From an uncultured virus (IMG/VR IMGVR_UViG_2030936005_000022) (Duplodnaviria > Heunggongvirae > Uroviricota > Caudoviricetes): a stretch of 64,000 nt of DNA. Each line of letters begins with the position of its first letter. Within the stretch, counting starts at the first letter, position 1. The translations under genes were made by a program, and so were the position numbers. Below, piece by piece: positions 11,145-64,000 of this stretch. The stretch spans positions 62,001 through 126,000 of IMG/VR virus record IMGVR_UViG_2030936005_000022. One strand, written 5' to 3'. The notes below the pieces were generated by a model, which was not told the origin of the DNA, made no database searches, and was given only the letters and a program-made list of their open reading frames with translations.

Positions 11145-11177
11145 TATAATTTCCTCTTTTGTTTTGATAACATCTAT

Positions 11178-11206
11178 ATTATATCACATTGTTGAGCGTT
11201 TGTCCC
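11178..11206 (-). promoter_or_regulatory. Promoter GGGACA-N17-TATAAT
   Basis: TTGGGACA-AACGCTCAACAATGTGA-TATAAT. Confidence 0.85.
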
Positions 11207-22846: not shown

Positions 22847-22901
22847 TCTAAGTACTCCTTAGTTATTTTTTAACACCGCCTACATCAGCGGCTACATTCT
22901 T

Positions 22902-22930
22902 ATTATATCACATGATTTTTGGTTTGTCCC
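22902..22930 (-). promoter_or_regulatory. Promoter GGGACA-N17-TATAAT driving the NAD salvage operon
   Basis: TTGGGACA-AACCAAAAATCATGTGA-TATAAT. Confidence 0.85.
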
Positions 22931-48486: not shown

Positions 48487-49004
48487 ATTAATCCTTCTGG
48501 AATATCTAGGTTATCAAAATTCTCTTCCATGCCAATATCAATCATTGTGTTGGACATGTAGCATATTTTAGCTAAAGATGGACAGTACTTAGCAATAGCA
48601 TCGTACATCTCTTGAGTACCGAAATTATAGATAGTATTCATTTGGAATACATACTCTTCATCAAAAGAATCCATCTTACGAGTTTCAATTGGCATCTCAT
48701 CAAAGTACGACCCAACATCTACTAAATGTGTAATGTCCACCATTTCACCTAATTTACCATACACAGTAAGTTTAGGATAGTATGTTTCATCTAATCGTAT
48801 TCTACTGTTCGGTGCTTTTGGTGAACTGCGAGAACAATCATAGATAGTAATAATCTCTCTACAAGTTTCTAAATTGTGAATACCAACTTTATAATGCGTA
48901 ACATACGCTCGGTATGGACCAATTTGGTTATCAAAGAAATTGGATTCATTTTTATTACGATCATAAAGTTGTATTAAGTTAAACACTACTTCAACTATAT
49001 TCAT
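48483..49004 (-). CDS. FQ-motif family hypothetical protein
   Basis: EEYVFQMNTIY. Confidence 0.75.
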   Translation of the reverse strand: MNIVEVVFNLIQLYDRNKNESNFFDNQIGPYRAYVTHYKVGIHNLETCREIITIYDCSRSSPKAPNSRIRLDETYYPKLTVYGKLGEMVDITHLVDVGSYFDEMPIETRKMDSFDEEYVFQMNTIYNFGTQEMYDAIAKYCPSLAKICYMSNTMIDIGMEENFDNLDIPEGLI

Positions 49005-49579
49005 TTGGTCATCTCCAAAAACTCATAGGACAAGTTAGGCATGATACGTTGAGGTAGATTCCCAGAAACGAAACATTTGTGTTGCATCATCATTGGGCGA
49101 ATCTTTTGTGCAAATTCGTAAAACGCCATAAGCTCATCAAGCTCTGGAAGAGAGCTAATGGCGGTACTCAACATGAAGTGGTTACCTTCTTCACATACTT
49201 CATGGAAGGAATATTCCTCACATTCTTCACCAGCCCTCATCTTTATACGAACAAGTATATCATCTAAAAACTTTGGATTCAAGTGATATTTGATCATACC
49301 ACCCAAGCCAATGTAAATTTCCGATCTTTCTTTTGAGTCGTTTTTGAAATTCGATATCTCAAATCCATAATCTAACGTTTTATCACTGGCTGACCAACCA
49401 GAGTACTCATACTCTTCAGTACGGTTACCACGTACATCATATGTACTCTCTGCGACATGAGAATGAGTCATTCCAAAGTCTTCATACTGTCTACGTTGCT
49501 TTACCTTTTTGTCTCTTAGATTGTACAAAGAATCAAAAGCATTAAGTACACTACGCTGTAAAGTTTTATAATCCCGCAT
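49001..49579 (-). CDS. FQ-motif family hypothetical protein
   Basis: EEGNHFMLSTAI; likely start MRDYKT. Confidence 0.7.
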   Translation of the reverse strand: MRDYKTLQRSVLNAFDSLYNLRDKKVKQRRQYEDFGMTHSHVAESTYDVRGNRTEEYEYSGWSASDKTLDYGFEISNFKNDSKERSEIYIGLGGMIKYHLNPKFLDDILVRIKMRAGEECEEYSFHEVCEEGNHFMLSTAISSLPELDELMAFYEFAQKIRPMMMQHKCFVSGNLPQRIMPNLSYEFLEMTK

Positions 49580-50099
49580 ATAAATTACTCCAGTACTCAA
49601 AGTCACCACCCTCATTTACAATCTTACGAACTAACGGAATAGGGTTTAACAACTTACCACGATAAGATCCATTAAATGAAATACCGTTTTCAATACATTC
49701 AGTCATAGCTTGATATACTTGTTGAATTTCTTCAATATCAGTACTCAATTCAGCAAGTAAACTGTACTGAAAATATCCTTCCTCAGTGAGCAAATCTTCA
49801 GTACTAACTGTCATGTTGGTTCCACCAGTAACATACAAGGTAGTGCGGAAGTCTGTATTGTTGTTAGTAATGTACGCTCTTTTGGACGTAATGGCAATAT
49901 AGTTACGTTCCATATAATGATTAAATGAACGATTCATCTTCATAGAGTAGCCATCGTTATACACTTCTAATTGACGACTATTCCTTTCCCATTTCCACAA
50001 CATATGGTTGTACTTGTACGCAATATCAAAATCGGAAACTTCTTCTTCTAACTCTTTGAATAGTTTAATTAAAGTACGGATATTTTCAAGATAATACAT
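49566..50099 (-). CDS. FQ-motif family hypothetical protein
   Basis: EEGYFQYSLLAE. Confidence 0.75.
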   Translation of the reverse strand: MYYLENIRTLIKLFKELEEEVSDFDIAYKYNHMLWKWERNSRQLEVYNDGYSMKMNRSFNHYMERNYIAITSKRAYITNNNTDFRTTLYVTGGTNMTVSTEDLLTEEGYFQYSLLAELSTDIEEIQQVYQAMTECIENGISFNGSYRGKLLNPIPLVRKIVNEGGDFEYWSNLYAGL

Positions 50100-50105
50100 A
50101 GAACC

Positions 50106-50405
50106 TCACTTGTTCCAATCACTTCCCATAGATTCAATCTCTTCAGCGATATCATAGATCTCACTTAGAGTTGCTTTTACCCAAAACACAGTTGAACTGG
50201 AAATACTTTCATATCTGTGATTTCCAGAATACAAGAATACAGTATCTTGAGTACATTCTACAGTACTGTCACCAATGGTAACATGGTCTAATAAAGTATA
50301 TTCTTTACCTTCTGGTTTTTTGTACACAGAAGTGTTGTGATCAATATTAATAGCTTCTAGTTGAAACCACACATCATTTGGAACTGCTCTGATATTATAA
50401 CTCAT
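50106..50405 (-). CDS. Hypothetical protein
   Basis: About 99 aa. Confidence 0.65.
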   Translation of the reverse strand: MSYNIRAVPNDVWFQLEAINIDHNTSVYKKPEGKEYTLLDHVTIGDSTVECTQDTVFLYSGNHRYESISSSTVFWVKATLSEIYDIAEEIESMGSDWNK

Positions 50406-50419
50406 ATTCACCTTCTATT

Positions 50420-50448
50420 AAAAAGAGTACACGACATGTGTCGTGTAC
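50420..50448 (-). terminator. Intrinsic terminator
   Basis: GTACACGACA-TG-TGTCGTGTAC plus T-run on minus strand. Confidence 0.7.
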
Positions 50449-50455
50449 ATAATGA

Positions 50456-51187
50456 CTACATTAATGAAACCATTCCGAGAAGAATACTTTCATCAGGTCT
50501 TTGATATTTTTGTTTTTCTATTTTGAAGTAGAATGAATCAGCATCTTGTAAATCATAACGCTTTTTCAAACAACGAGTATAAGTACTGTTATTTGGATGT
50601 ACCCATTCGTACACCTGAACACCATCCTCATTATACCCATCAATACTTCTTCTGTTCCCTTCGTGCTTGTGGAAGTTCTTACTACGTTCAGTAAAAGTCT
50701 TTTCAGCAACACTATCAGGGAAATCGTATATGTATGGAACTTCTGTTAGTCTGAAGTAAAAGTATTTCTCATCTTCAGAGTAACCTAGAAGAACAGTTTC
50801 AGTACTAGTCACATTGTACTTCTCTTTACTCTTCTGTTCGTTTTCCATAATATCTTGTAGTACTTCTTTTAAAACAAGATCTGGTTCAGCATTAGGATTG
50901 GATACCCCTGATACACGTCTTTCGATAATGAAATCAGTGAATCTCCTTTCTTCTTCTACTTCGCCATTCATATACATACCCACAAACTTGTCTTTATATG
51001 ACTTTACTGAGTACTGCATACCCTGTACTTCACTAAACACATCAGCCAATAGGTTAGCTTGTCCACACTGTACCCCTGACGAAGCCGCCGCAGTTGCGTA
51101 TTCTGCCATGATTGGGTTTAGTGCTTGGAAACTAGCCATGTTTAACTCGTTTGCGAGTTCTTGTGCAAATTTAATTCGATCTAACAT
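50456..51187 (-). CDS. Hypothetical protein, possible PD-(D/E)xK restriction-endonuclease-like fold
   Basis: AEY...LADV-x8-YSVKS arrangement; ORF is credible, the fold call is tentative. Confidence 0.4.
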   Translation of the reverse strand: MLDRIKFAQELANELNMASFQALNPIMAEYATAAASSGVQCGQANLLADVFSEVQGMQYSVKSYKDKFVGMYMNGEVEEERRFTDFIIERRVSGVSNPNAEPDLVLKEVLQDIMENEQKSKEKYNVTSTETVLLGYSEDEKYFYFRLTEVPYIYDFPDSVAEKTFTERSKNFHKHEGNRRSIDGYNEDGVQVYEWVHPNNSTYTRCLKKRYDLQDADSFYFKIEKQKYQRPDESILLGMVSLM

Positions 51188-51219
51188 CGTTCACATTCCT
51201 TGTGATTAAATCTGCTTTA

Positions 51220-51846
51220 CTACTCCTTAATTCCATATTTTTGTCTTAAATCTTCTATCTCTAAATCCACAATACATCCCGAACTCTTCATCAGTACTTT
51301 ATCGACATGTTCACTTAGTAGTAAAAGATGTAATGCATTCATCGCAATGACGTATAAGAATTCTGGAGTTTCGGTATCTATCATACTGTGCTGAAACATT
51401 GATGCTTCATCAGCTAAATCTATAGTATTAGTACGACCTTTACTATCTTTGATAATAAATTCAGTACTTATATTTTCTATTTTAATAGTCCATTCGTTGG
51501 GACTAAAATATCCAAGGGATATTAAATTAATTCTTGGAGAACGGACCATACCCAAATGGAATGTCTCTAGACTTGCTAGATGTTCAGTATTACCATGCAT
51601 ATAAGTACCAATACGCGGCGTAGTACTTTGTACGTAAAATGTTTCCGAAGCAATTTCACCATCAATACGATGGAAGGTTTTATGCGTTTTAGCATCTCTG
51701 GAATTCATCAATGCTAATGGATAGTTTATGTGGTTGAATGGTAGTTCAGGAAGTTCATCAGCTTTCATGCGACTAATCTCCATCATGTACTCAATGTTTT
51801 TTATCATTCTTCCAAAGTTAAGTCTAGCTGCTTGTTCTTGCGTCAT
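51220..51846 (-). CDS. FQ-motif family hypothetical protein
   Basis: DEASMFQHSMID; N-terminus MTQEQAARLN shared with next gene. Confidence 0.75.
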   Translation of the reverse strand: MTQEQAARLNFGRMIKNIEYMMEISRMKADELPELPFNHINYPLALMNSRDAKTHKTFHRIDGEIASETFYVQSTTPRIGTYMHGNTEHLASLETFHLGMVRSPRINLISLGYFSPNEWTIKIENISTEFIIKDSKGRTNTIDLADEASMFQHSMIDTETPEFLYVIAMNALHLLLLSEHVDKVLMKSSGCIVDLEIEDLRQKYGIKE

Positions 51847-52440
51847 ATTCATCCCTCAAATTACGGATACCTAAATCGAATTTTAAAAAATTACACTTCA
51901 GGGTAAGTTTATTCACATTGTGAGATTTATGCAATAACTTTCTCATATTCTTTGCAATATCTAAAAGATACAACGGCACACCACCGACTACTGAGTACTG
52001 AAAAACTTCTGCTTCATCATTAATATTGACAGTAGATGTTAATATATTATTAGCAGTTGAGATATGCTTGAGAACATAATGTGGTGACTCTTCTTCGATA
52101 ATGATATACAAATCCCGACTACATTCATTATAGATAATATAATTATCAAGTTCAAAGCGACTATCTTTATATGCAGTAGTCATATAACACACAGATGGGT
52201 TGTACATACTATCTTTTGGTTTTGTAAATTGACGTAGATGCTGGGTTCGGTTGCGTACATATAAGTTCTGCCTAATTTCGCTGAATCTTCCATTACCATC
52301 TGGTCTTCTATGATATTATAATTTGCGTTTTTAAACCCTAGATCCATCATATGGATACCTTTAGCACTCATCTCTAGCATAAAGTCCATAGAATTGATAA
52401 TATTAGTTGAATTCAAAAGGGTTGCTTCTTCTTGTGTCAT
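51824..52440 (-). CDS. FQ-motif family protein split by an indel at about 52221
   Basis: MTQEEATLLN N-terminus plus DEAEVFQYSVVG; one added A joins both ORFs. Confidence 0.65.
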
Positions 52441-52460
52441 AAAGTCTCCAATTTTAGCTT

Positions 52461-52488
52461 AAAAGAAAACCCACATGTTAGTGGGTTT
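52461..52488 (-). terminator. Intrinsic terminator
   Basis: AAACCCAC-N6-GTGGGTTT. Confidence 0.65.
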
Positions 52489-52639
52489 AGATATCTTTGT
52501 CAACAAGTCTTTCGTGAATTGTTTCATCACAAACACTACAGATAGTCTTTGCAATAACAATTCCACCATCTTGTCCTACACCATACGTACATATCGTATA
52601 TGCTAGTACTTCAACGTGACAGTACGGACAGTGTTTCAT
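52487..52639 (-). CDS. 50-aa Zn-ribbon protein (not in ORF track)
   Basis: MKHCPYC...CSVC. Confidence 0.6.
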   Translation of the reverse strand: MKHCPYCHVEVLAYTICTYGVGQDGGIVIAKTICSVCDETIHERLVDKDI

Positions 52640-52646
52640 TTCGCAA

Positions 52647-52862
52647 TCATCTTCCATCTTTAATCCTCGTTATTGATTCTTCAAGTAGATGCCAGAAGAA
52701 GCAACCACCGAATACCACAATGATACAACTAATGGCGTACAAGATATAAAAAGAACTAACTGGAATAATAGAAAGTACTACAAGGTAGAAGAACATAATC
52801 AAACAAATAACACAGATTGCAATTCTTCTAATAGCTATGCGAAGTCTATCTGATATACTCAT
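52647..52862 (-). CDS. Membrane protein
   Basis: Two TM helices. Confidence 0.65.
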   Translation of the reverse strand: MSISDRLRIAIRRIAICVICLIMFFYLVVLSIIPVSSFYILYAISCIIVVFGGCFFWHLLEESITRIKDGR

Positions 52863-53470
52863 AGGCTTAGTGCCTGAATTGTATTCACTTGAGTACGAAG
52901 GATGAACTTCAAGTTCTCATAAACAGAACGATTTGAGAAGTTCTCTTTGCAAAGGCGAATCATATCAAAGTAATAATCCTCAGTCTCTTTACAGTACTCA
53001 GAAAGTTTTTCTGCACTGAACACACCCGGTGCAGTACTGAGATTATGAACACGGTCAATAAGTTTCACAATACTACATACTTCACATGTACTCAATACAT
53101 TGAAATACTTCTGGTATCCACACTCACCTGATTTAAACTTAGCAAGACGATCACTGTACTGGAGTACATTAGGAAATAGCTCTAGAAGCTCCTGACGCTT
53201 CTCTGGGTAGTCTTCAATCACGTCATGGACCAAGATTGCCTTATACACATCAAGTGGTTTAGAAAGCTGCTGGTGGAACGTGAGAGCGAATGCAATCATC
53301 TCTAGCTGATGACTGAACTCACGTGAGCCATCTTTGCGAGTATACACATGAATGTTCTCGCAGAAGATTAGTAGTTTGCGAAGATCGTTATAGCCGGGAT
53401 CAGCTAGAGCCAACCCCTCGATGATGCCAAGTACTTTAGTGCGTAGTTTATCATAATCGGTTTTAGGCAT
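52859..53470 (-). CDS. HD-domain hydrolase, SpoT/Mesh1-like small alarmone hydrolase family
   Basis: H...RKDG..EFSH, VHDVIED, VKLIDRVHNL. Confidence 0.8.
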   Translation of the reverse strand: MPKTDYDKLRTKVLGIIEGLALADPGYNDLRKLLIFCENIHVYTRKDGSREFSHQLEMIAFALTFHQQLSKPLDVYKAILVHDVIEDYPEKRQELLELFPNVLQYSDRLAKFKSGECGYQKYFNVLSTCEVCSIVKLIDRVHNLSTAPGVFSAEKLSEYCKETEDYYFDMIRLCKENFSNRSVYENLKFILRTQVNTIQALSL

Positions 53471-53472
53471 AA

Positions 53473-54090
53473 TTAGTCCTCGTCGTCATCATCATCGTCA
53501 TCGCCGTCCATATCAATTTCGATATACATATCATCGTCATCAATAATTTCAACAACAACCCCGTCTACCTTCATGTCTTTGAATATTACATCGTACTTTT
53601 CTTCAGAAGGAATTAGAATGAAGTCTGTAACATCTTCAATTGGTGGTAGTTTATCAAGATCAATGTCAGCACCAAGGGATTTTAGTTGGTTTAGTAGAGC
53701 CTCTTTGTACTCTTGGAATTTCTCTGGTGTTGGGAAGTCCATAATCATCTGAGCAATAATACCTTCGGAGCAACCGTAAGTAATACCAAGTTGACTATCT
53801 AATGCTACTTCAGCCCATAGAGGAACACGCATTTGACTCTGGATGTGTTCTAGTACTGCTTTAACTTTTTCATGACGATCACTATTAATGATGTAATCCA
53901 AGTTAAGTACTGTCATGTTCATATCTTCAATTGAACCTTCTTCTTCGAAAGCCCCGTAGTCATTGAAGACGTACTGCACATTATCAAAGTAATATGCTAC
54001 TGCAAAATCTTGGTCTTCACCCTTACCACGAATTGGACGTGGGGAGAAACCCATACGATGATAACGCATAAATGTATTGGTTGTAAACAC
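53473..54090 (-). CDS. Hypothetical protein with acidic C-terminal tail
   Basis: AAGGAG SD, GTG start, poly-Asp tail. Confidence 0.75.
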   Translation of the reverse strand: MFTTNTFMRYHRMGFSPRPIRGKGEDQDFAVAYYFDNVQYVFNDYGAFEEEGSIEDMNMTVLNLDYIINSDRHEKVKAVLEHIQSQMRVPLWAEVALDSQLGITYGCSEGIIAQMIMDFPTPEKFQEYKEALLNQLKSLGADIDLDKLPPIEDVTDFILIPSEEKYDVIFKDMKVDGVVVEIIDDDDMYIEIDMDGDDDDDDDED

Positions 54091-54099
54091 TGTTGCTCC

Positions 54100-54339
54100 T
54101 TAGTTCATACTACTGCATACATAGATTGTATTGTTTCCCAAGTACAACAAAGTCGCTTTAGGATATTCATATACCATATCGTCTGCTTCAAAATAACAGA
54201 AAGATACGGTTTCATCTTGTAGTGATTCAATTAGATTTTTAGTACTGCTACTCATGTTCTGAAGATATACATGAATGTATGTTAAACCTTCTAGTGCAGT
54301 GCACCTCTCTGGGATGATATTTCCATTAATTGTTATCAT
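54100..54339 (-). CDS. Hypothetical protein
   Basis: 79 aa in operon. Confidence 0.6.
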   Translation of the reverse strand: MITINGNIIPERCTALEGLTYIHVYLQNMSSSTKNLIESLQDETVSFCYFEADDMVYEYPKATLLYLGNNTIYVCSSMN

Positions 54340-54628
54340 TGGTCATCCCCAAATAACTGGTTATATCGTCGTGACTCATTTCTTCATCACTCTCAATGTA
54401 GTTCATTAGAGAATCGATGGTTGAAAACAATTGAGCTAATTCATGAGCTTCCTCGCGAGTGTAAGAATAACCCATTGGAATCAAACTAGACTTCCATTCT
54501 CCCATACATTTGTGGGAAACGCAAGCAAAGATTTTCACTGCACCATTAAAAATACCAACATGACGGTAACCCGTCAATTCGTTGTCAGCCCAATGTACTG
54601 CTGGTGCTGGTCGTAATTCAAGTTCCAT
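54326..54628 (-). CDS. Hypothetical protein
   Basis: 100 aa, GAGGA SD. Confidence 0.65.
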   Translation of the reverse strand: MELELRPAPAVHWADNELTGYRHVGIFNGAVKIFACVSHKCMGEWKSSLIPMGYSYTREEAHELAQLFSTIDSLMNYIESDEEMSHDDITSYLGMTNDNN

Positions 54629-54629
54629 A

Positions 54630-55167
54630 TCATTTCCTCATATGCGATTGAACGCCACAGAACATATCATATTTTAAGTACTCATCATCTCCGGGTAAAC
54701 ATATCTTGAATGTACCGAAGTCATTGTTCAGTACTGACTGACGCATTAAGGTACTACTGTATATGCATCCAGTTCTGTCTGAACCTGCGAGTACTGTCTT
54801 GATGGAGTTAAAATTATAGTTCACTCCGTTATATTTGTCAAGTGTTTTTTGAAATGAATCAGTTCTATCACTTCCACCCACAAATACAATTTCTTCGTAC
54901 TCACCGTTTAGGCCATCCATGATATCAAACAAGTTTTTTGACATTTTCATCTTGGATTGTGTTAGCAATTTCTGGGAAGAACTTTGAAATATAGAACTGA
55001 CGAAGTTCTCTTGGAAGTGGATTTCTTTCTGTATCTATTGTTGAACTCAAGAAGAGTTTAACATCGGTAGAAGCATTCTGCAAAGATAATGCTTGTTCGA
55101 ATACTTTACCGTGACCTAAGTGTACGGGATTCATTCTCCCGTACATAAACACACAAGTTTTAGACAT
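54630..55167 (-). CDS. HxGH nucleotidyltransferase (cytidyltransferase-like) split by an extra A in an A6 run (54934-54939)
   Basis: YGRMNPVHLGH, RNPL, VGGSDR, SSTLMR. Confidence 0.8.
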
Positions 55168-55687
55168 TTTTCATTACCAAACCTAAAGTTTTTAAGTACT
55201 GAACCTTTGCATCTGTTAAATTCCTATCAAGTACAATAATACAACTAGGGAAAGGTGCAGGGTTCTCCTTTTTAGTTACATCTCTATCAGGGTCAAAGAA
55301 CTTCAATCTTCCCTTAATAAAGCATATACAAGAACATTCTTTGGCTGCATAAAGTTGGAATGCTTTAGTATCAGTTCTAGAAGGAACTAGTATAACAACT
55401 GTGGCTCCCCTTTGATATGCATCAACTGCTTTGGTAAGCCATGTCTTAAGATCATCGTAAGGTGGGTTAAGCCAAACGATTTCAGTACCCCAATCCTGTA
55501 TTAGACTATTGTCTCCAGGAGTGTAGTACTTTTTACATAATGCACTATTGGGTAAACACGCTGCATCTAGTGTAAACTTCCAATGTGCATCTATGTCGCG
55601 AAATAACTCTCTTGGAGTATTCCATGTTTGAGATTCAGAAGAGTAATGTATACTCATATCTCTCTTTGCATTTCCTTTGCTACTCAT
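55160..55687 (-). CDS. Phage DNA N6-adenine methyltransferase; specificity unknown
   Basis: WNTP, FTLDAA, WLNPPY, LVPSRTDT, GRLKF, APFPS. Confidence 0.88.
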   Translation of the reverse strand: MSSKGNAKRDMSIHYSSESQTWNTPRELFRDIDAHWKFTLDAACLPNSALCKKYYTPGDNSLIQDWGTEIVWLNPPYDDLKTWLTKAVDAYQRGATVVILVPSRTDTKAFQLYAAKECSCICFIKGRLKFFDPDRDVTKKENPAPFPSCIIVLDRNLTDAKVQYLKTLGLVMKNV

Positions 55688-55694
55688 AAAAATC

Positions 55695-56228
55695 CTATTT
55701 TAGACAGAACCTCATAATGTCATCAAATTCGGCACTATTGATTCTGTATTCGTCGTGAAGTTTAAAGTGGCTTCCATACAACATAAAGATGTTAAAAACT
55801 TCATCTTCAGCAAACTTGTATGTGTTAAATGATTCGTTATCTCCTTTAAATCCAATGAAGGACTTAATATCTTCAGTTACATCAGTACTGTTACTGTAGT
55901 ATAAAACCGTTTTTAACTCACCACTTATTGTATATTTCCTGTACTCACCTTGAACTCTGTTGTTATGGTCAGTATAATATACAGTATTGATATTCCCATT
56001 GTTATAGCGTTCCTCGCTATAACCACCATATTTCACAGAAAAAATGACAGGTTGTTGTGTAGGTCTAAAACTAATCTTTCCTACTTGCTTTCCTTCGTTG
56101 AACTCAATAATATTACTGAGTTTATTGAAGTCCTTTGTAATTTTATATCCAGTAAAGTAATTCGGTACTTCGTTGTCATTGGGCTTGATAACTGTACCAT
56201 CTTTCTGTTTATATGTTACTTCATTCAT
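55695..56228 (-). CDS. Hypothetical protein with MORN-variant-like repeats and a divergent FQ-like motif
   Basis: YNNGNI...QGEYRKY..SGEL; EDEVFNIFMLYG. Confidence 0.65.
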   Translation of the reverse strand: MNEVTYKQKDGTVIKPNDNEVPNYFTGYKITKDFNKLSNIIEFNEGKQVGKISFRPTQQPVIFSVKYGGYSEERYNNGNINTVYYTDHNNRVQGEYRKYTISGELKTVLYYSNSTDVTEDIKSFIGFKGDNESFNTYKFAEDEVFNIFMLYGSHFKLHDEYRINSAEFDDIMRFCLK

Positions 56229-56252
56229 TGTCTGTGCTTCTCTTTTTGTTAT

Positions 56253-56355
56253 GTACAATCAACGAATCATTTCACTTCGTTCTATGATTCAGAGAAAGAA
56301 TAATTCAAATACTCACTAGCGTTCGTATTTTAATATTCTTTTCATTGGATTGTAC
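56253..56355 (-). other. Y-shaped element with twin GA-AC-G(N/NN)A-GT-GA hairpins
   Basis: Closing stem GTACAATC/GATTGTAC; arms 56264-56290 and 56294-56343. Confidence 0.6.
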
Positions 56356-56359
56356 TTTA

Positions 56360-56899
56360 ATTATTGACGAGGTTTGTTGATTCAATTTCATCCCCCCACA
56401 GGGAGGGAAGAAAAATATATTTGACGCTGGTGGTGTCATCATTTCATGTCACGAATTTCATATAAGAACGGAAGCGGGTTGCCCGGTTTCTTCCTATCGC
56501 GGTTCTATGCAACGGTCGTAGTCTTACTACACTAATACAATAACAACATGAACTGTTATTGTACTTATCACTCAAATTCTGGACGGAATAAGGGCTAGCC
56601 CTAAATTACGTCGCACTTGAATAAGGTGAATCCCTTATACATTATGGTAGGTGCGAATCCTATATGTCTATCGTGCCGTGAACACGCCAAGTCCTCTTGT
56701 ATTAATCGACTTGGTTTTAATAGCCGCATTGCCGTGGGTGGTACTAACTATGCCATCTCCTAACGGGTCTCATCTGCTATCGTACTGAATGAACTACTCA
56801 ACTGTCCTCTACATTTTCGAGTGAATCAGGTTATTTAAATTCCCCAGAACGGGGCCATTCAGAATTGAAAAGGGGTAAAGGACACACGCCTTTACCCCT
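56360..56899. ncRNA. Candidate large structured non-coding RNA or transcription-primed origin
   Basis: Only long ORF-free gap in the window; at least 10 inverted repeats; GC-richer than flanks; promoter at 56902-56930 points into it. Confidence 0.5.
56868..56899 (-). terminator. Hairpin overlapping the predicted start site; may terminate upstream read-through
   Basis: AGGGGTAAAGG-N7-CCTTTACCCCT-TTT. Confidence 0.65.
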
Positions 56900-56901
56900 A
56901 T

Positions 56902-56930
56902 ATTATATCACATTTTTGTCACTTTGTCTC
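56902..56930 (-). promoter_or_regulatory. Promoter GAGACA-N17-TATAAT
   Basis: GAGACA-AAGTGACAAAAATGTGA-TATAAT; no ORF downstream for about 640 bp. Confidence 0.75.
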
Positions 56931-57776
56931 AGAAATCTGAGCCATAATTTTGTTATGAAAACGTTTATAGTTTTCAATCTCATAGTCTGAAATGAACTTC
57001 CTAGCACTCAAAAATAATGAGTGATCATCCATCCAGAACTGCATACACTTCATGAAAAAATCAACACGCATATGCCACGTTTCAGTACAGCCATGCTCAT
57101 CATCATCAAATACACGCTTCCCAGCGAACAAGTGCTCACTAGTACTGTATTCTTCATACACAGCATCGTCATCATTATAGTTCCGCTTACGTTGCCCTGC
57201 GAACTGCTGAGTGCGGTTAATGCAGTCTGAACCCATCTTGAAGTACTTCACGTACTCCCAAACCACGAACGGATAAACAGCATCGTGAATGTTCTTGTAA
57301 TGCTCACCATCAGGAACAATACTGTAATCAGGCCGTGCGTTCGTCAAGCCGTCATGCTGACTCTCAGAACTTATACCGAACTGGAAGAACCGACCTTCTT
57401 CATCTTCACCACAAGCCTTACCATAACCATAACGATTATCACCATATCGACACGCTTCATATGCACCTTTAGCAATGCACATCTTACCGCTTTCCATGTT
57501 GTACGCTATGTAATCGTAATCGTAAACACCATCTAACATGTACTGAAACATTGCTTCATCTGGAACATCAATTAGTACTTTGTACTCATTACGATCTAAA
57601 TGACGACAGTACTTGGATATTTTATGTGAAGCTGTTTCTGTAAATGTCATAAGCTCATGTGGATGCATAGCAAAACTTGCACGGTCACTTACATAACCAT
57701 ATGGTTCTGCTATACAATCTTCCTCATCACAATCATCTCGTAATGTGTTGAAATCAATTATTAACTGTAATTTCAT
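56919..57776 (-). CDS. Hypothetical protein with FQ-like motifs
   Basis: DEAMFQYMLD and EEGRFFQFG; likely start MKLQL. Confidence 0.75.
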   Translation of the reverse strand: MKLQLIIDFNTLRDDCDEEDCIAEPYGYVSDRASFAMHPHELMTFTETASHKISKYCRHLDRNEYKVLIDVPDEAMFQYMLDGVYDYDYIAYNMESGKMCIAKGAYEACRYGDNRYGYGKACGEDEEGRFFQFGISSESQHDGLTNARPDYSIVPDGEHYKNIHDAVYPFVVWEYVKYFKMGSDCINRTQQFAGQRKRNYNDDDAVYEEYSTSEHLFAGKRVFDDDEHGCTETWHMRVDFFMKCMQFWMDDHSLFLSARKFISDYEIENYKRFHNKIMAQISETK

Positions 57777-57777
57777 A

Positions 57778-57999
57778 TTAATCGAAGTTCCAAGATTCTT
57801 CTTCGAAGTCACTTAGCATTTGTGCTAGTTCAGCCGCTTCACCAATACTAGCATCAAGCACTTCAAAGTCAATATTACAACCGTAATAACACTCTGATGC
57901 TTGCATTAGTTCATCATGAATCTCTTGTACAGATTTGTCTTTGTATAGGTTTAGATAGTGATCACCACTTTCAGATGTAATGTGTAATGCTACAATCAT
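57778..57999 (-). CDS. Hypothetical protein
   Basis: Start MIVALH after AGGAG. Confidence 0.65.
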   Translation of the reverse strand: MIVALHITSESGDHYLNLYKDKSVQEIHDELMQASECYYGCNIDFEVLDASIGEAAELAQMLSDFEEESWNFD

Positions 58000-58009
58000 A
58001 GTATATCTC

Positions 58010-58774
58010 CTAAAATTTATAGAAGCCTTTAATGCTTCCGTCTTCGTTTCTTTGTGTACTAAAACTACCATCAGCATCTTTTCCAACCATCTCAAAGAAA
58101 TGGTGTAGTACTTCATGGTGACGAACAACTTTCTTCAAATCACTATTGTGAATGAAATTAGCAATGTCACTACTAACTGGTGGTAGATTGACATTCGGTA
58201 AATCATTTACTACTTGAGCAATATCTAATAATTGCTCACATGTACGTTTAACAGAACTGAATTTCTTACGAGCATTTTTTATATAATCACTCGCTTTGTT
58301 AGTACCGTAAATGTAATCACGAACTCCCTCATAAGTAATACAATGAGTAATAGCCCAAAACTGTTGGATTTTGTATTCGCTCAAAATCTCACCCACTGTT
58401 TGCACATAGTCCGAAATCTCTACATCAAATAATAGTTCATCTTTGTTGAGAATATCTTTTGGGACGGTTAAACAATACTCACCAGTACTGAGATTAGTTG
58501 CGAAATGACCGTCTGGATGAACATTCACCCAACCTTCCAAGAAGTCAATTAGATGTGAGTCAACCATATTCCACATCGTTTTATTGTACTCTTTAACTAA
58601 AGGAAGAATACGTTCATTGTACTGTTCTTGATATAGATCCGCTTGGAAATTATCATCAAGAATTTCACGCATAGAAAGGGGGCGAAGTAGTTTGGTGTGA
58701 ATCTTTTTAGCTTCATCTTGAATGAAAAGGAATTGATTTACTTGGTATTGGCGAATTTCTTTAAGACTGTACAT
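58010..58774 (-). CDS. Hypothetical protein
   Basis: 254 aa, GGAGA SD. Confidence 0.8.
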   Translation of the reverse strand: MYSLKEIRQYQVNQFLFIQDEAKKIHTKLLRPLSMREILDDNFQADLYQEQYNERILPLVKEYNKTMWNMVDSHLIDFLEGWVNVHPDGHFATNLSTGEYCLTVPKDILNKDELLFDVEISDYVQTVGEILSEYKIQQFWAITHCITYEGVRDYIYGTNKASDYIKNARKKFSSVKRTCEQLLDIAQVVNDLPNVNLPPVSSDIANFIHNSDLKKVVRHHEVLHHFFEMVGKDADGSFSTQRNEDGSIKGFYKF

Positions 58775-58794
58775 AAGTTCTCCAAAATTAAATT

Positions 58795-58826
58795 AAAAAA
58801 AGAGCAGGAGTTTCCCCCTGCTTTTT
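58795..58826 (-). terminator. Intrinsic terminator
   Basis: AGCAGG-N8-CCTGCT plus T-run. Confidence 0.65.
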
Positions 58827-58829
58827 GGC

Positions 58830-59135
58830 TTAGTGATTAGTGCTGTAAGCGAATACAGGACGCATGTTTTCTAGTGGATTGACTTCAGGTTTAAGTACTG
58901 TTACTTTAACTTGATACTCTTCTCCAGTTGTTGGATGGGTTAGTGTTTCGAAATGAACACTATCAATAAACGTTTCGTATTCTTCTTGAGAACGTGCTGT
59001 TACTGTACTGTATTTTTTCTTAGAATCAGCTTTAGCAGTAACACTTACTACTTCAACTTCTTCATTTTCAATATCATTGAAATCGCGTTCTTCTAGAGTT
59101 GCGAACATATCAAATTTGTTATTTCCATTTTCCAT
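58830..59135 (-). CDS. Hypothetical protein
   Basis: 101 aa. Confidence 0.75.
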   Translation of the reverse strand: MENGNNKFDMFATLEERDFNDIENEEVEVVSVTAKADSKKKYSTVTARSQEEYETFIDSVHFETLTHPTTGEEYQVKVTVLKPEVNPLENMRPVFAYSTNH

Positions 59136-59163
59136 TTTTTAATTCCCTTTAAGTAATATGTTA

Positions 59164-59553
59164 TTATTCGATAATTAGTGAACCGTTGCGGTACATGTCT
59201 AGACGTTCTAGTACAGTCTTACGCTCAACGATCTCTGGAACTTCTTCATTCAACTGAGCACACGCTTCTACCATGAAGTCGTAGTCAGAATCACAATTAT
59301 CTAGTACTGCTTTAAGTGTTTCCCAATCAGCAGAAACTTCTCCAGTTTTGCGATTGCGATAGGAAGGCCAGAGGTCACCGTACTCTTGAACGTCTTTACC
59401 GTGATAAACACGAATAGCATTGAATAGCTGGCCTATGGTAAAATATTTGGTGTGCTGCATATCTTCAAGACAACATAGTTTTTCACTACCTTCATGGTTA
59501 ATTAGCACTACGCCACCAACAGTCTTTAAGATTTGAGAATGATTAGTCTTCAT
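59164..59553 (-). CDS. Hypothetical protein, probably early
   Basis: AAGGAGG SD directly after promoter. Confidence 0.8.
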   Translation of the reverse strand: MKTNHSQILKTVGGVVLINHEGSEKLCCLEDMQHTKYFTIGQLFNAIRVYHGKDVQEYGDLWPSYRNRKTGEVSADWETLKAVLDNCDSDYDFMVEACAQLNEEVPEIVERKTVLERLDMYRNGSLIIE

Positions 59554-59587
59554 AATGTCGCCTCCTTACGAATTTTTATGATGATTT

Positions 59588-59616
59588 ATTATATCACATT
59601 ATTGGTCGTCTGTCCC
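59588..59616 (-). promoter_or_regulatory. Promoter GGGACA-N17-TATAAT
   Basis: TTGGGACA-GACGACCAATAATGTGA-TATAAT. Confidence 0.85.
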
Positions 59617-59925
59617 AAGTTTTTCTTCAATGTGTTTCCACCACTGCCCGAAGTCATCTAGGATCATGTAAAATGTCTTTTCACATGGTTCATCGAAGTC
59701 CAAAATATGCTCCGAGTACAAATATGTTAAGTACTTTACATCACTTTTTGTTTTATTAAAACGCGAAGAAAGAATTAAAGAATCAATAGCACTCTTTTCG
59801 GTTGGTGTATTCAAAAGATACAACACAGTACCGTCAGGGTGAATAATCTCTTCCGCATTCTTCGGTTTCATTCTGTGACCTAAATTTGGAATCTTAGGTC
59901 CGTTCTTGAATTTGAGTTCTATCAT
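59599..59925 (-). CDS. Hypothetical protein
   Basis: Likely start MIELKF. Confidence 0.65.
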   Translation of the reverse strand: MIELKFKNGPKIPNLGHRMKPKNAEEIIHPDGTVLYLLNTPTEKSAIDSLILSSRFNKTKSDVKYLTYLYSEHILDFDEPCEKTFYMILDDFGQWWKHIEEKLGTDDQ

Positions 59926-60778
59926 CTTCCATAACCTCAATAGAATTTAATAACTGCTTTATAAATGAAGAATGCTTATCCTGTTCTTTTAGTACCGAAT
60001 ATGTATCTTCAATGTTCTTTTTAAAGAACACTCTGATCCCTTCCATAATTTCAAATAGAACTGGATCTGCAATCATATCAAAATTGAATGTAACATACTT
60101 GTTATAAACAAAATCAATACTTGCATCTTTATAATCAAAGTACTGCACATAATCTAATCTTTCAAAATTTTTGTGGAAATTAACTTTGATCTTATTCTTC
60201 TTCTCGTGATGGATACTCATTGAGTATGTTTCACGATTATTTCCGGTTGTCCGAATAGTAGTACGTAGTACTTTACCTTGATTGTTAACCTTTTCATAAA
60301 AGGATAACCCACTATGAGTACTAAAATTATGCTCTTGGTATTTCTTGAATTTTTCTACTCTGTAAGTAAACACATGTGGTACTATTGCACTAAGCACTTT
60401 TTCACCTCTGCGGGAAATATCCAAACCTTTAATGATAAAATTCTTATAGCAAACACCTTTTGATGGTCTGTGCACATAACCAATATCATCAAAACCACAA
60501 CTTTCAGAATGCTTTTCTTTGTTGTAGAAATTAGATGACGTGATTACATCTTGTATATTATCATCGTAGTACTTGCACCACCAGCCACGTTTATCTATCT
60601 TCAGCCATGTATTCTTTTCAAAGATAATGGTAAGTACTTGAGGGCTGCGTTTAGTTTCCAGTACTTTAGATGTAAAAATACTGGCATCGAAAGTACGCCC
60701 ATCGAACCAAAACTGATTTAAAAATTCATTGTACTCTTTCACTGAGTACCGCTTAAAATCAAAAATATTGTTTTTCAT
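59894..60778 (-). CDS. Hypothetical protein
   Basis: About 294 aa. Confidence 0.75.
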   Translation of the reverse strand: MKNNIFDFKRYSVKEYNEFLNQFWFDGRTFDASIFTSKVLETKRSPQVLTIIFEKNTWLKIDKRGWWCKYYDDNIQDVITSSNFYNKEKHSESCGFDDIGYVHRPSKGVCYKNFIIKGLDISRRGEKVLSAIVPHVFTYRVEKFKKYQEHNFSTHSGLSFYEKVNNQGKVLRTTIRTTGNNRETYSMSIHHEKKNKIKVNFHKNFERLDYVQYFDYKDASIDFVYNKYVTFNFDMIADPVLFEIMEGIRVFFKKNIEDTYSVLKEQDKHSSFIKQLLNSIEVMEDDRTQIQERT

Positions 60779-60793
60779 AGTACCCCACAAATG

Positions 60794-60943
60794 TTAAAAG
60801 GACGTGAAATCACGTCCTTTATGTTTAACTTTGCCATTCTTGGCTTCTTTTTTTTGATCAACAAAAGTCTTAGGTTTGTTGAAAGTTTCCATGTGCTTCG
60901 CAACTGGATTGTTTACAACAGGGTTCTTCTTTTTCTTTGACAT
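60794..60943 (-). CDS. 49-aa basic NPVAK...KHKG protein (not in ORF track)
   Basis: MSKKKKNPVVNNPVAKHMETFNKPKTFVDQKKEAKNGKVKHKGRDFTSF; GGAG SD. Confidence 0.7.
   Translation of the reverse strand: MSKKKKNPVVNNPVAKHMETFNKPKTFVDQKKEAKNGKVKHKGRDFTSF
60796..60820 (-). terminator. Terminator-like hairpin inside the 3' end of the 49-aa ORF
   Basis: AAAGGACGTG-ATTT-CACGTCCTTTT. Confidence 0.7.
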
Positions 60944-60945
60944 GT

Positions 60946-61269
60946 TTACTCCAAGTCAGGGTTTTTAACTGAAAGACTCTCAATATCTGATGCATAGATC
61001 ATCACATGCGGTTTGTCTTCTGCTACCTTAAAGTCGTGGTAGCTGTCCTTCACAATGAAATTATCAAGGATAAATCCTTTAGTGAGGAATAGCATATACT
61101 TATTATCATCTTTTGTCAAGTAAGTATTGCGACGATTTTCTACATTTCGTTGAGCAGTATCTTCTTCCGTATTTCTACAAACACGTTCGTTATATTCCTG
61201 ATGGGTATACATTGGCATTCCCATTACCCAAGACGATTCTGTACTAATTGTTACAATAAAAGATTGCAC
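60946..61269 (-). CDS. Hypothetical protein, start uncertain
   Basis: 107 aa; upstream 61270-61465 has interrupted frames. Confidence 0.45.
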   Translation of the reverse strand: MQSFIVTISTESSWVMGMPMYTHQEYNERVCRNTEEDTAQRNVENRRNTYLTKDDNKYMLFLTKGFILDNFIVKDSYHDFKVAEDKPHVMIYASDIESLSVKNPDLE

Positions 61270-61468
61270 TTATCCGAGTGGAAGCAATCATGCATAGACT
61301 TACTACACAAAACAAGCATTGTATCACATCACGAAAATTAAACATAATATCGTGAATCTCAAAGGCATCTTGAGTGATAATATCTTGTACGGGACCACTC
61401 TCTTTTATTCCGATCATAGTTCACTCCTTGAACCTATTCACGAGTACAATCCATGTACTCTCAATATA

Positions 61469-61954
61469 TCATTTAGCTTCTAGCTTATACGCCTCAACCG
61501 CTTCAGATACATTCTCGATAGCTTGATCGATAAATTCTTTACTAACTAAACGCGGGGAGGTCTTCATTTCTTTTAGAAGCTCTAGGTATTTAGTCATTAA
61601 TTCTGGGATGATTCCAAAGTCGAAATCATGCACAGTGCTGTACTGAAATAGTTCACCACCATCGACATACAAGCGATTGTACGAGGTTTTAAACCCACTT
61701 TCGAGTACTGTTAGGGTCAAATCCAAACCACGCTCATACGAGCCTACAGACACGATAGCAGGGTTGATAGCAATACTAGCATTCTTTGCATTATCACTAT
61801 AAACTAAACGTAAAGTTCCAGCACCAATAATAACAGTTAGGTCATCTGTATTAAGGGTAGTAATATCCCCAGAAACAGAAACTTTATTATTTAGACGGTC
61901 TTTAGTACTGAAAGATTTAGATAGCCGTGCAAATGCATCTTCAAGTTTATTCAT
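61469..61954 (-). CDS. FQ-motif family hypothetical protein
   Basis: GGELFQYSTVHD. Confidence 0.75.
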   Translation of the reverse strand: MNKLEDAFARLSKSFSTKDRLNNKVSVSGDITTLNTDDLTVIIGAGTLRLVYSDNAKNASIAINPAIVSVGSYERGLDLTLTVLESGFKTSYNRLYVDGGELFQYSTVHDFDFGIIPELMTKYLELLKEMKTSPRLVSKEFIDQAIENVSEAVEAYKLEAK

Positions 61955-62394
61955 TATTCGTAATCCTTTAGTAGTTCTACTAGTTTAACAATACTATCAT
62001 CACTGCAAGTGTACGATAGGTTTAGAAGGGTGTACTGGAAGAAATCAATTTCATTAATTCCACCATACGGTACTGGTTGGGCTTTACCTTGTTTGTCTGC
62101 CATGTAAACATCTTCTGCATCAAAACGCATAGAAAATGTATCACGTTCTTCTGGGTTCAAATACACAATAAAACGACCCAAGGATTTAGCAAGTTTTTCA
62201 ATCCTGATGCTATTAGAACCATAACTGAACTCAGCATCACCGCGATCATTCTGGAAATGATAGAAGTTGATACCACCAATATTAGTATAGCCCTCTGTGT
62301 ATAGAAGGTCTTTGTGGTGATACATAACTTGAATCAGTTCATCAAGCGTAGTCGTCCGAGTCTTATTTTTGGTTAGCGAAAATAAATGAATCAT
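61954..62394 (-). CDS. FQ-motif family hypothetical protein
   Basis: EIDFFQYTLLN. Confidence 0.75.
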   Translation of the reverse strand: MIHLFSLTKNKTRTTTLDELIQVMYHHKDLLYTEGYTNIGGINFYHFQNDRGDAEFSYGSNSIRIEKLAKSLGRFIVYLNPEERDTFSMRFDAEDVYMADKQGKAQPVPYGGINEIDFFQYTLLNLSYTCSDDSIVKLVELLKDYE

Positions 62395-62824
62395 AAATTC
62401 CTCTGCACATGGATAACGTTTTAATCATTGTATCATAGTCGAACTTGACTTGCAACCCCCAACCACCCACACAATTTTGAGTGAAGAAAACACCCTCCAT
62501 CTCGTCAAGTGTGAACGCTTCATCAAACAAATTAGTCTGATATAATTCGGTCTTTGGATTGTATACCATCAAGAATTCAGTACTGTAACGTATTACTAAT
62601 TTCTTTGGACTAATCATAATCCTGCATAAATCTTGCAAGTACTCAGTGCGAATATGTAAGTTAATGTGATTCTTATGACCAGCACAACGAACATCCATCG
62701 CGTATCCATCACCGATAACAAAACCATTTCTGGGGGTAAATTCTTTACCCGCACTCATTGACAGGCAATCCTGTACAATATAATTGATTGTATCCAAGTT
62801 GTCAAGTATATCTACTTTACGCAT
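62363..62824 (-). CDS. FQ-motif family protein (divergent)
   Basis: EGVFFTQNCVG; start MRKVDI after AGGAG. Confidence 0.7.
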   Translation of the reverse strand: MRKVDILDNLDTINYIVQDCLSMSAGKEFTPRNGFVIGDGYAMDVRCAGHKNHINLHIRTEYLQDLCRIMISPKKLVIRYSTEFLMVYNPKTELYQTNLFDEAFTLDEMEGVFFTQNCVGGWGLQVKFDYDTMIKTLSMCRGIYDSFIFANQK

Positions 62825-62834
62825 ATCTTCTCCT

Positions 62835-63404
62835 TTAAATCCCAACCTTATGTATCAATGTACGACGAATTTTACGAACATACTGAGTCTTAAATGAAAA
62901 CGGGATATAAAGATGATAACCCTCTAATTCCGGGCAAGGTGCTGTAAGAATCTCTTCATAGGCTCTTTTAATTATATTGTACTCTGGTAGTTCTGGGTGG
63001 ATCAACGATAACTGAAAATGCTCATCTTCAGTACATAACCCTTCCTTAAAGAATGTGTCAACATAATCATCAGTATCCAATAAATCTGAATTTTCAGAAT
63101 TAACAAAAGAATAACCAAAAAATTCATCATCTTTGTTGTAGGCAACACTGCAACCTGTATTACAAAATAATGAAATGCCAGTATCTTTGGATAAATGGAA
63201 TACATGTTCGGAACCGTAACCATCAATGTATGTTCTTATATATATTTTATCTTTATCAGTCCATACAAATTCTAGTTCATTACCATCGTCCATGCGAGTG
63301 TTTTGTTGATAACTATAAGCTACTTTTTGTTTCCTGAAATTCAAACAACGAATAGCTAGATCTCTACATAACTCGAAATGCTCTTTAAGTTCTTCATAGT
63401 TCAT
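62835..63404 (-). CDS. FQ-motif family hypothetical protein
   Basis: EDEHFQLSLIHP. Confidence 0.75.
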   Translation of the reverse strand: MNYEELKEHFELCRDLAIRCLNFRKQKVAYSYQQNTRMDDGNELEFVWTDKDKIYIRTYIDGYGSEHVFHLSKDTGISLFCNTGCSVAYNKDDEFFGYSFVNSENSDLLDTDDYVDTFFKEGLCTEDEHFQLSLIHPELPEYNIIKRAYEEILTAPCPELEGYHLYIPFSFKTQYVRKIRRTLIHKVGI

Positions 63405-63407
63405 TGG

Positions 63408-63959
63408 TTAAAATTCCTCAAAGTACAAACAAATGTCATCATAGATAGTGTTAAGAAGTTCAGTACTAACTTCTGGACAAAGATCCATATAGAAACACAT
63501 ACCTTTCATTTCAGTACAATCCATAGTTAGTGCTTCCATATAACGTGGAAGGTCTTCGTACTTCAATACCATATCATCACGAATAAGTGATTGTTGAAAG
63601 TACTCTTCCTCGCTGATATTAATTACACCACCATCTAGCTTAGAATCCAAGTACTCATCTTCGTGATCATTCCCACTATCAAAGAATGTATACTCTTCAT
63701 TACGTTCATCACCTTCCATGAAGTTACGGCCCCATCCACGATGTGTACGGAGATTGATAATATACAAGTGCTCATGATTTCCAATTTCGCAAATCTCGTA
63801 ACGTTCTTCGTGATCATCCATATCAAATGATACACGAACTAATGCATGTTCGTCTGCGTACTTAAACCCATACACCCTGCATAAGTATTGTGGCATGTAC
63901 TTTTCATAAGAGAATACTTTTGGTTTATTCTTATTAAGCAAAGCACCCAATTCTAGCAT
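63408..63959 (-). CDS. FQ-motif family hypothetical protein
   Basis: EEEYFQQSLIRD. Confidence 0.75.
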   Translation of the reverse strand: MLELGALLNKNKPKVFSYEKYMPQYLCRVYGFKYADEHALVRVSFDMDDHEERYEICEIGNHEHLYIINLRTHRGWGRNFMEGDERNEEYTFFDSGNDHEDEYLDSKLDGGVINISEEEYFQQSLIRDDMVLKYEDLPRYMEALTMDCTEMKGMCFYMDLCPEVSTELLNTIYDDICLYFEEF

Positions 63960-64000
63960 AAGTTTGTAACGATAGATATCTTCATCTACTTTGTCTTTAA

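Follow-up and report, generated by a model that had tools for sequence, protein, structure and literature searches.

What does the longest gene-free gap in this viral DNA encode? The stretch analysed here (the window, 64,000 nt) is part of a 136.8-kb virus record in the IMG/VR database, IMGVR_UViG_2030936005_000022 (G000 below), and its positions 56259–56918 (660 nt) form the longest interval without a chosen open reading frame (ORF) of at least 60 aa. The runner-up, 193–664, was rejected as a non-coding gap because it holds an ORF that runs off the window end and is thus coding; the next largest gap measures 307 nt, so that the original prediction, made from the window's letters alone, rightly called this the only long non-coding gap. 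It had also proposed an uncharacterised, promoter-driven RNA of about 550 nt, which is borne out by massive covariation among related copies and by the lack of any Rfam match. Its extent needs amending, since the unit runs on to about 56263 and is one of several paralogs. The gap is thus a predicted transcription unit for a large, triple-pseudoknotted RNA read from the minus strand. The region is 87% identical to the Salmonella phages Munch, 7t3, SE_PL and PHA46 and the Klebsiella phage fENko-Kae01, and about 480 nt of it are 69–82% identical in 71 RaK2/121Q-like jumbo phage records, with four to five matching places in each.

Covarying fold, promoter and strand

An nhmmer search over all collected loci gave 182 matches, 27 of them cut by the end of a locus, and 99 distinct full copies. 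We kept 91 of these, setting aside eight diverged or partial ones, and used 70 representatives below 95% identity (median pairwise identity 62%) for a covariation screen and for mutual information (MI) with average product correction (APC). The model, built on alignment A1, holds 92 pairs in 17 helices. Standard pairs are formed in 91.5% of its cells, compared with 72.7% after shuffling and 38–42.5% when the partners are slid by 1–3 columns, while compensatory cells, changed on both sides, number 1164 compared with 320 shuffled and 146–213 slid. The covariation score of 0.513 was reached by none of 500 shuffles (0.177 shuffled; 0.077–0.099 slid), double-sided changes occur in 69 of the 92 modelled pairs, and each of the 17 highest-ranking APC-corrected MI pairs is pair-forming, with at least 86% standard pairs. 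The predicted elements are as follows.

56930–56902, minus: promoter, with −35 element GAGACA (56930–56925), 17-nt spacer, TG (56910–56909) and −10 element TATAAT (56907–56902)
56867–56899, minus: 11-bp hairpin (56871–56899) plus UUUU, right after the promoter and just past the stop of the upstream gene
56422–56866, minus: conserved core of the RNA (about 445 nt), with 15 or more covarying helices
56855–56862 (CUGAAUGG) with 56785–56792, minus: pseudoknot 1, the partner being the loop of a 3-bp hairpin (56782–56797)
56776–56779 with 56721–56724 (UAGC/GCUA) and 56763–56766 with 56732–56735 (CCGU/ACGG), minus: nested helices around the invariant CGGCAAUGCGGC
56727–56729 (AUG) with 56664–56666 (CAU), minus: helix with its AUG side in the 56721–56779 region
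56535–56564, minus: long hairpin with loop UUCAUGU (56546–56552)
56546–56552 (UUCAUGU) with 56443–56449 (ACAUGAA), minus: pseudoknot 2, made by the loop of the long hairpin
56450–56531, minus: 3′ core (helices 11–14), with hairpin 56517–56531, the invariant GACCGUUG and a closing helix, 56497–56501 with 56450–56454
56509–56513 (GUUGC, within GACCGUUG) with 56478–56482 (GCAAC), minus: pseudoknot 3, the partner lying in the loop of the GGAAG/CUUCC hairpin
56490–56494 with 56470–56474, minus: GGAAG/CUUCC hairpin, whose loop takes part in pseudoknot 3
56422–56438, minus: last core hairpin, with arm UGAC, loop and then site 1 (CCAGCGUCA)
56392–56406, minus: C-rich/G6 hairpin, CCCUCCC-UGU-GGGGGG, with an invariant G run
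56365–56391, minus: 3′ module, AUGAAAUUG..AACAAA plus site 2 (CCUCGUCA, 56365–56372), unique in the window
56307–56330 and 56263–56291, minus: two hairpins with GAACGNAGUGA-type loops, almost reaching the next gene (ATG at 56228)

All three pseudoknots are made by hairpin loops. In the region of pseudoknot 1, helices 1–3 change on both sides in 8 of 8, 7 of 8 and 2 of 3 pairs, and helices 4–6 are paired in 100%, 100% and 98.6% of cells. The long hairpin (helix 9) shows double changes in all 11 of its pairs, as does pseudoknot 2 (helix 10) in all seven, with 98.8% of cells paired. Four pairs of pseudoknot 3 are invariant, and the fifth switches between C-G, U-A and A-U while staying paired in every copy (columns 426–453, MI rank 15). 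Pseudoknot 1 (56785–56862) also encloses a hairpin at 56802–56829 with a GAAAAUGUA loop. The loop of this hairpin, GAAAA(U)GUA on the minus strand, is swapped for GACAA-GUA in some copies of alignment A1; the boxB loops of phages lambda and P22 show the same GAAAA/GACAA-type alternation.

The promoter is of the sigma-70 type with an extended −10 element and matches the consensus at 10 of 12 positions, and it is kept as TTGGGACAAA...TGTGATATAATAT in all seven copies of the first alignment. Its start is expected near 56895, as the original prediction had it, inside the 5′ arm of the terminator-shaped hairpin 56871–56899. This hairpin had been counted as part of the RNA; together with its U run (56867–56899) it is instead a predicted intrinsic terminator of the upstream gene, outside the conserved RNA, and is variable or absent among other copies. 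Promoters of the same class, GGGACAAA..TGTGATATAAT, stand on the minus strand at 11176–11206 and 22900–22930 of the window, where an ORF with a ribosome site follows after 31 and 53 nt, respectively. With ordinary ORFs so close behind the two sister promoters, the class is general to the phage, and it is probably the phage's standard early promoter; only at the RNA locus do some 660 nt without a gene follow.

On either strand the region folds better than every one of 100 dinucleotide shuffles (z −2.85 in the minus and −3.55 in the plus sense), so folding energy cannot choose the strand, and covariation and the promoter do. The promoter is conserved, G-U and U-G cells outnumber A-C and C-A cells among the modelled pairs by 467 to 170 when read in the minus-strand RNA sense, and the C-rich/G6 hairpin (helix 17) varies in all six of its pairs on one side only, exchanging C and U opposite G, with 96.8% of cells paired. 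On these grounds the assignment of the predicted RNA to the minus strand, as the promoter had implied from the outset, is settled.

The repeats from which a structured region was first suspected are all present at their places in the window:

56871 (AGGGGTAAAGG) and 56889 (CCTTTACCCCT): repeat
56687 (CCAAGTC) and 56708 (GACTTGG): repeat
56611 (TCGCAC) and 56651 (GTGCGA), around 56621 (ATAAGG) and 56633 (CCTTAT): repeat
56591 (AGGGCTAGCCCT): repeat
56536 (TACAATAACA) and 56554 (TGTTATTGTA): repeat
56518 (GTAGT) and 56526 (ACTAC): repeat
56575 (AATTCTG) and 56860 (CAGAATT): repeat
56392 (CCCCCC): run, G6 on the minus strand
56385, 56441 and 56455: ATTTCAT repeats

Two structures read from them do not hold. 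The long-range AATTCTG/CAGAATT helix failed the covariation screen, three of its bases belonging to a covarying pseudoknot, and the T-loop-like hairpin at 56647–56663 is the antisense image of a conserved minus-sense hairpin; ARAGORN finds no tRNA or tmRNA gene in the 64 kb.

The two sites at the 3′ end

Past the core, the sequence of site 1 (YCANCGUCA) returns as site 2 (YCNCGUCA), 57–87 nt downstream and beyond the C-rich/G6 hairpin. Of the 70 representatives, 34 have C and 36 have U at the Y position of both sites and none is discordant; among the 99 copies, eight island copies included, Y is the same at the two sites in 97. Five core types (CGUCA, UGUCA, CUUCA, CGACA and CGAAG) are each found at both sites of one molecule, and the hairpin arm tracks the site core, GACGA going with UCGUC, UCGAU with AUCGA and UUCG with CGAA; this arm covariation was read by eye from individual cases, automatic arm detection being noisy. 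On a tree built without the site columns, Y changes five times per site and always jointly, although a sign test on these changes is underpowered (p 0.25), with 3 of 3 pairs when limited to well-supported branches and 5 of 5 when every branch is counted.

The simplest reading is that one hairpin arm would have two interchangeable partners, site 1 and site 2, and that the layout would serve as a switch, or as a hairpin that forms for a time and then gives way to a long-range helix. The same sequence identity would be needed if site-1 RNA paired with the template DNA at site 2. The co-variation extends to Y, an unpaired position.

A hairpin with a U run, that is an intrinsic terminator, lies between the two sites in 41 of the 70 copies. 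Thirteen of the 41, two of them weak calls, use the site-1 core GUCAGR as their own 5′ arm, which makes the arm:site-1 hairpin and the terminator mutually exclusive, an attenuator layout. The terminator is separate from site 1 in 28 of the 70 copies, and in 29, the window's included, there is none between the sites. A second paralog in record G000 (C1:48224–48714) has a perfect one, UCAGGA-UUA-UCCUGA followed by U8, the 5′ arm overlapping the site-1 core. No terminator-like site was found on the minus strand from the window's RNA down to 55500, and transcripts from its promoter should therefore enter the next gene. Downstream of site 2, hairpins with a GAACGNAGUGA-type loop and differing stems recur in 30 of 69 copies.

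Paralogs in jumbo phages and bacterial islands

The window's copy is one of a set. Record G000 holds the second copy 70 kb away, outside the window (C1:48224–48714; L002 1501–2082), and phage Munch has five, at about 40.5, 100.2, 182, 263 and 316.7 kb on a single strand. A strict 3′-core motif, GACCGTTG..GAAAC..CAACCCGC, matches three to four times in each of five complete genomes, on one strand only, and its reversed control has no match in the same five; it further matches 50 IMG/VR loci and 89 metagenome loci. An initial pattern of 14 specified bases was dropped as too loose, since most of the 120 loci it collected were chance matches. The 99%-complete record G001 carries a copy identical to the window's and four copies by nhmmer. 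At the place syntenic to Munch 316.7 kb (C1 about 500–1040), G001 lacks a fifth copy, although it has kept the flanking gene. In complete genomes of RaK2/121Q-like jumbo phages there are four to five anciently diverged copies, all on one strand and 54–82 kb apart.

These copies are more evenly spaced than chance would give, as judged by the minimum gap; the tests treat the genomes as circles, and synteny makes the three genomes a single observation:

Munch: gaps of 53.5–81.9 kb, p 0.003
IMGVR_3300012988: gaps of 63–81 kb, p 0.0004
G001 (four copies): gaps of 70.1–127.8 kb, p 0.01

In a tree of 32 copies, two classes each hold one copy from each of six genomes (supports 100/99 and 100/100), the window's copy falling in the first. 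The paralog classes are accordingly older than the sampled phage genera, each being kept at its own syntenic place. The genes that flank the copies differ from one to the next, and the 182-kb copy of Munch faces two convergent genes; phage copies as a whole are co-oriented with the bulk of the genes. Six metagenome contigs (L237, L259, L228, L223, L263 and L272) belong to a diverged subfamily with core CGAAG, in which the 3′ core, the G6 hairpin and the two sites are retained and the 5′ half differs, unmatched by the profile.

At the locus itself, the gap is flanked by two minus-strand ORFs, 56919–57812 and 55695–56258:

56919–57812, minus: upstream gene, 297 aa, no Pfam family, stop at 56919
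55695–56228, minus: downstream gene, ATG at 56228, no Pfam family

Two genes downstream of the RNA lies a gene for a Dam-type DNA N6-adenine methyltransferase (55160–55687, minus; Pfam PF05869, E 2e-30).

The RNA is also found in bacterial genomes. A scan of GTDB genomes gave 14 loci, of which nine are full-length copies confirmed by nhmmer: eight in Enterobacterales (Serratia, Citrobacter, Enterobacter, Silvania, Buttiauxella and others) and one on a 2.8-kb contig binned as Clostridium. The other five, in metagenome-assembled genomes labelled Chloroflexia, Anaerolineales, Verrucomicrobia, Bacteroidetes and Mycobacterium, were left unconfirmed by nhmmer and judged to be chance matches; by eye they are unrelated, partly coding sequence, and by our own estimate about three chance matches are expected.

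Pfam was run on 54 of 64 ORFs from five of the eight island loci. In four of the five, an integrase stands directly upstream of the RNA and co-oriented with it (three large serine recombinases and one tyrosine integrase); the fifth has a serine recombinase and two ParB-like genes past the RNA's 3′ end. Further island genes encode a CI-like repressor, a small helix-turn-helix repressor, invertases, Hachiman (HamA and helicase), Kiwa KwaB and an ADP-ribosylglycohydrolase. A layout of integrase, RNA unit, CI-like and Cro-like repressors, DNA invertase and cargo recurs at L321, L322, L323, L325 and L327, where the cargo includes Hachiman, Kiwa (KwaB), LprI-like proteins and the ADP-ribosylglycohydrolase. 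An ADP-ribosylglycohydrolase gene also follows the phage copy at Munch 263 kb and G001 61 kb. Island copies retain the promoter elements TGTGGTATAAT and TGTCCTATACT (extended −10), and seven of the eight form a separate clade in the tree. Since the islands keep the whole unit with its promoter, in a clade of their own, the RNA would work away from the phage's own proteins.

Function and comparison with known RNAs

We tentatively favour the reading that the folded RNA is itself the product, a stand-alone structured RNA that acts through its fold. It has its own promoter, terminators in most paralogs (41 of 70, the window's not among them), no fixed gene partner and an ornate, covarying core, and it persists in islands without phage proteins. 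Host RNA polymerase would start at the conserved extended −10 promoter, near 56895, and proceed through the core (56866–56422), the 3′ module (56406–56365) and the two further hairpins to about 56263. The RNA would be an abundant early product whose tertiary fold acts on a partner not encoded nearby, either host machinery or phage proteins. At its 3′ end the arm would pair with site 1 or site 2, giving a structural switch or a stepwise co-transcriptional fold, and in most paralogs the terminator between the sites would set a short form against a read-through form.

Several observations weigh against a stand-alone product. No transcript has been seen so far, and we know of no protein partner. 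An RNA acting in trans leaves unexplained the even spacing, the retention of each ancient paralog at its syntenic place, the strong sequence conservation of the 3′ module past the terminator and the hairpins reaching as far as the next gene. The window's copy has no terminator before that gene, so that its RNA would also be the 5′ leader of the gene's mRNA. Two helices of the model are weak, helix 8 being paired in 71.4% of cells and helix 16, which has a register problem, in 47.8%. Contigs of four wastewater runs labelled RNA-Seq were compared with window 48000–64000: run X3 gave only two contigs, both inside the element, a 503-nt contig of run X1 spans 56344–56846, and X1, X2 and X5 also cover the coding flanks. 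These runs were picked by their match to this stretch, and the contigs carry no information on expression, ends or strand.

A second reading, possible though on balance unlikely, was the other alternative of the original prediction and takes each copy as an RNA-primed replication origin like those of ColE1 RNA II and T4 oriF/oriG. The folded transcript would stay hybridised to DNA near the G6 run, site 2 and the A+T-rich end, for use by the phage's T4-like replisome. Its full form, which we hold to be similarly doubtful, sees a triple-pseudoknotted pre-primer every ~70 kb of a 350-kb genome, with a 3′ platform of arm, sites and G6 run handing the transcript to the template as in ColE1 RNA II, and small integrase-bearing defence islands that copied one origin for their replication, and perhaps their spread, as satellites by an infecting jumbo phage. 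An origin would account for four to five evenly spaced copies on one strand (by the p values above, which are not independent) and for every paralog class being held at its own place in every genome. It also fits the invariant run of five to seven G after the C-rich run of helix 17 and the 75% A+T of the first 50 nt past site 2 (69 copies), compared with 62% for genome G001. Site 1 is repeated as site 2, as pairing of upstream RNA with downstream template requires; the rG-dC hybrid of ColE1, in the relevant passage of PMC4412123, offers a parallel. Yet the arm covaries with both sites, so that RNA-RNA pairing alone accounts for the repeat.

The islands bear on the same question. The RNA unit is the only feature they have in common with phage G001 besides one ADP-ribosylglycohydrolase, and in the 5 kb to each side of the island RNA, Pfam and PHROGs revealed no gene for a replication initiator, for packaging or for a capsid. 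A precedent for islands riding on jumbo phages comes from Pseudomonas, where their transduction was shown; the part of that report concerned with it mentions no RNA element (PMC12595487). The complexity of the RNA speaks against an origin: no known primer RNA has three pseudoknots and so many invariant junction bases, tight folding competes with hybrid formation, and 41 of the 70 copies terminate ahead of the G6/site-2 module. GC and AT skew, in the window and in its complete relative G001, show no inflection at any copy, a result that is uninformative since skew follows gene direction. The 3′ module holds AUUGCCUCA, which resembles the MotA box of T4, but the likeness was dropped: neither MotA (MotA_activ) nor AsiA was found in G001 or Munch, a weak negative because the control genomes were silent as well. 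If the origin reading were true, it would explain the fast copying of a 350-kb genome, and satellites would be seen to have a new means of exploiting a helper phage.

Somewhat less probable still is a cis-acting leader or attenuator, in which the RNA, heading a gene block, senses a signal and decides between termination and read-through, or makes polymerase terminator-resistant, for the genes downstream; as part of this doubtful proposal, the islands would wire their own genes to phage infection by RNA. The promoter lies directly upstream and the copies are co-oriented with most genes; the window's copy has no terminator before the next gene and conserved hairpins up to its ribosome site, and 13 of the 70 copies (two weak calls) have the attenuator layout, with a GUCAGR arm and a hairpin followed by U7–9. 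However, the downstream genes are unrelated among copies, convergent genes lie ahead of the Munch 182-kb copy and of several copies in islands, and of the 70 copies 28 have a terminator independent of site 1 and 29 have none. A sensor of about 450 nt would exceed any known riboswitch or leader, and no ligand or factor is known. Least probable is a DNA-level or selfish element, which would be either a site for packaging or for organising the chromosome, or a mobile cassette with an RNA gene that passes between phages and islands. The copies are evenly spaced, and a ~920-bp cassette holding the RNA is all that two Serratia islands with different flanks share. But the covariation, G-U pairs included, shows that RNA pairing is under selection, neither a transposase nor a target duplication was seen, and the phage copies are old, keep their syntenic places and have not moved recently.

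Large RNA classes with complex tertiary folds are few, and new biology has come out of each. The hosts of this RNA are easily grown phages of E. coli, Salmonella and Klebsiella, and structural studies could draw on dozens of diverged paralogs; at one copy per ~70 kb, its even spacing is a built-in puzzle, and the co-evolving sites 1 and 2 are a directly testable switch. It forms a link between giant phages and small chromosomal islands with defence systems (Hachiman, Kiwa). Should it act in trans, it would be a new phage RNA machine or a decoy.

Set against known RNAs, the family has no Rfam match and no description in the literature searched. Rfam 15, including GOLLD, ROOL, group I and II introns, RNase P, tmRNA, 6S, OLE and HEARO, gave no match at gathering score in the whole window, and at E≤10 on 55500–57800 only six chance matches, the best with E 0.51 and 20.8 bits compared with a gathering score of 92. 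Publications on jumbo phage noncoding RNA, RaK2/121Q intergenic repeats and ROOL/GOLLD, with subscription journals and supplements outside the scope of the search, do not describe it. For phage PA5oct, the transcriptome section of PMC7318152 reports four putative long noncoding RNAs (ncRNA001–004) found by RNA sequencing at ORF-free loci of 236–619 nt, two of them highly transcribed throughout infection. These are likewise promoter-distal ORF-free loci in a jumbo phage of the same wider clade. Our comparison covers ncRNA001 and ncRNA002, which were rejected as homologues (nhmmer E≥20, with none of the invariant motifs present).

The resemblance to ColE1 RNA II lies in the layout. In ColE1, the hybrid requires an rG stretch of the RNA to pair with a dC stretch of the template, and T4 oriF and oriG combine a middle promoter with a second element, as the origin sections of PMC4412123 describe. 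The jumbo phage RNA has its promoter 490–530 nt upstream of the invariant G5–7 run and site 2, a layout known from sequence alone, which recalls the promoter about 0.5 kb upstream of the G/C-run element in ColE1; in both, the folding of the transcript matters and a segment of the upstream RNA recurs close to the 3′ end. The two are not homologous, the jumbo phage fold is far more complex, and many of its copies have a terminator ahead of the G run. With the T4 origins it shares the occurrence of several per T4-like genome and a promoter followed by an easily unwound A+T-rich stretch, which was found here (75% versus 62% A+T). T4, however, uses MotA-dependent middle promoters and short unstructured transcripts, whereas the jumbo phage RNA has an ordinary extended −10 promoter.

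The closest analogues would be ROOL (RF03087) and GOLLD (RF01998), which in the overview given by PMC12286853 are ornate, pseudoknotted RNAs of 0.5–0.8 kb, often borne by phages or prophages and transcribed from their own promoter. They have no Rfam cmscan match at E≤10 to the jumbo phage RNA, which in turn is set apart by its place in enterobacterial jumbo phages, its four to five evenly spaced paralogs per genome and its island copies beside integrases. Like them, it is predicted to be large, ornate and pseudoknotted, and it is carried by phages with a promoter of its own.

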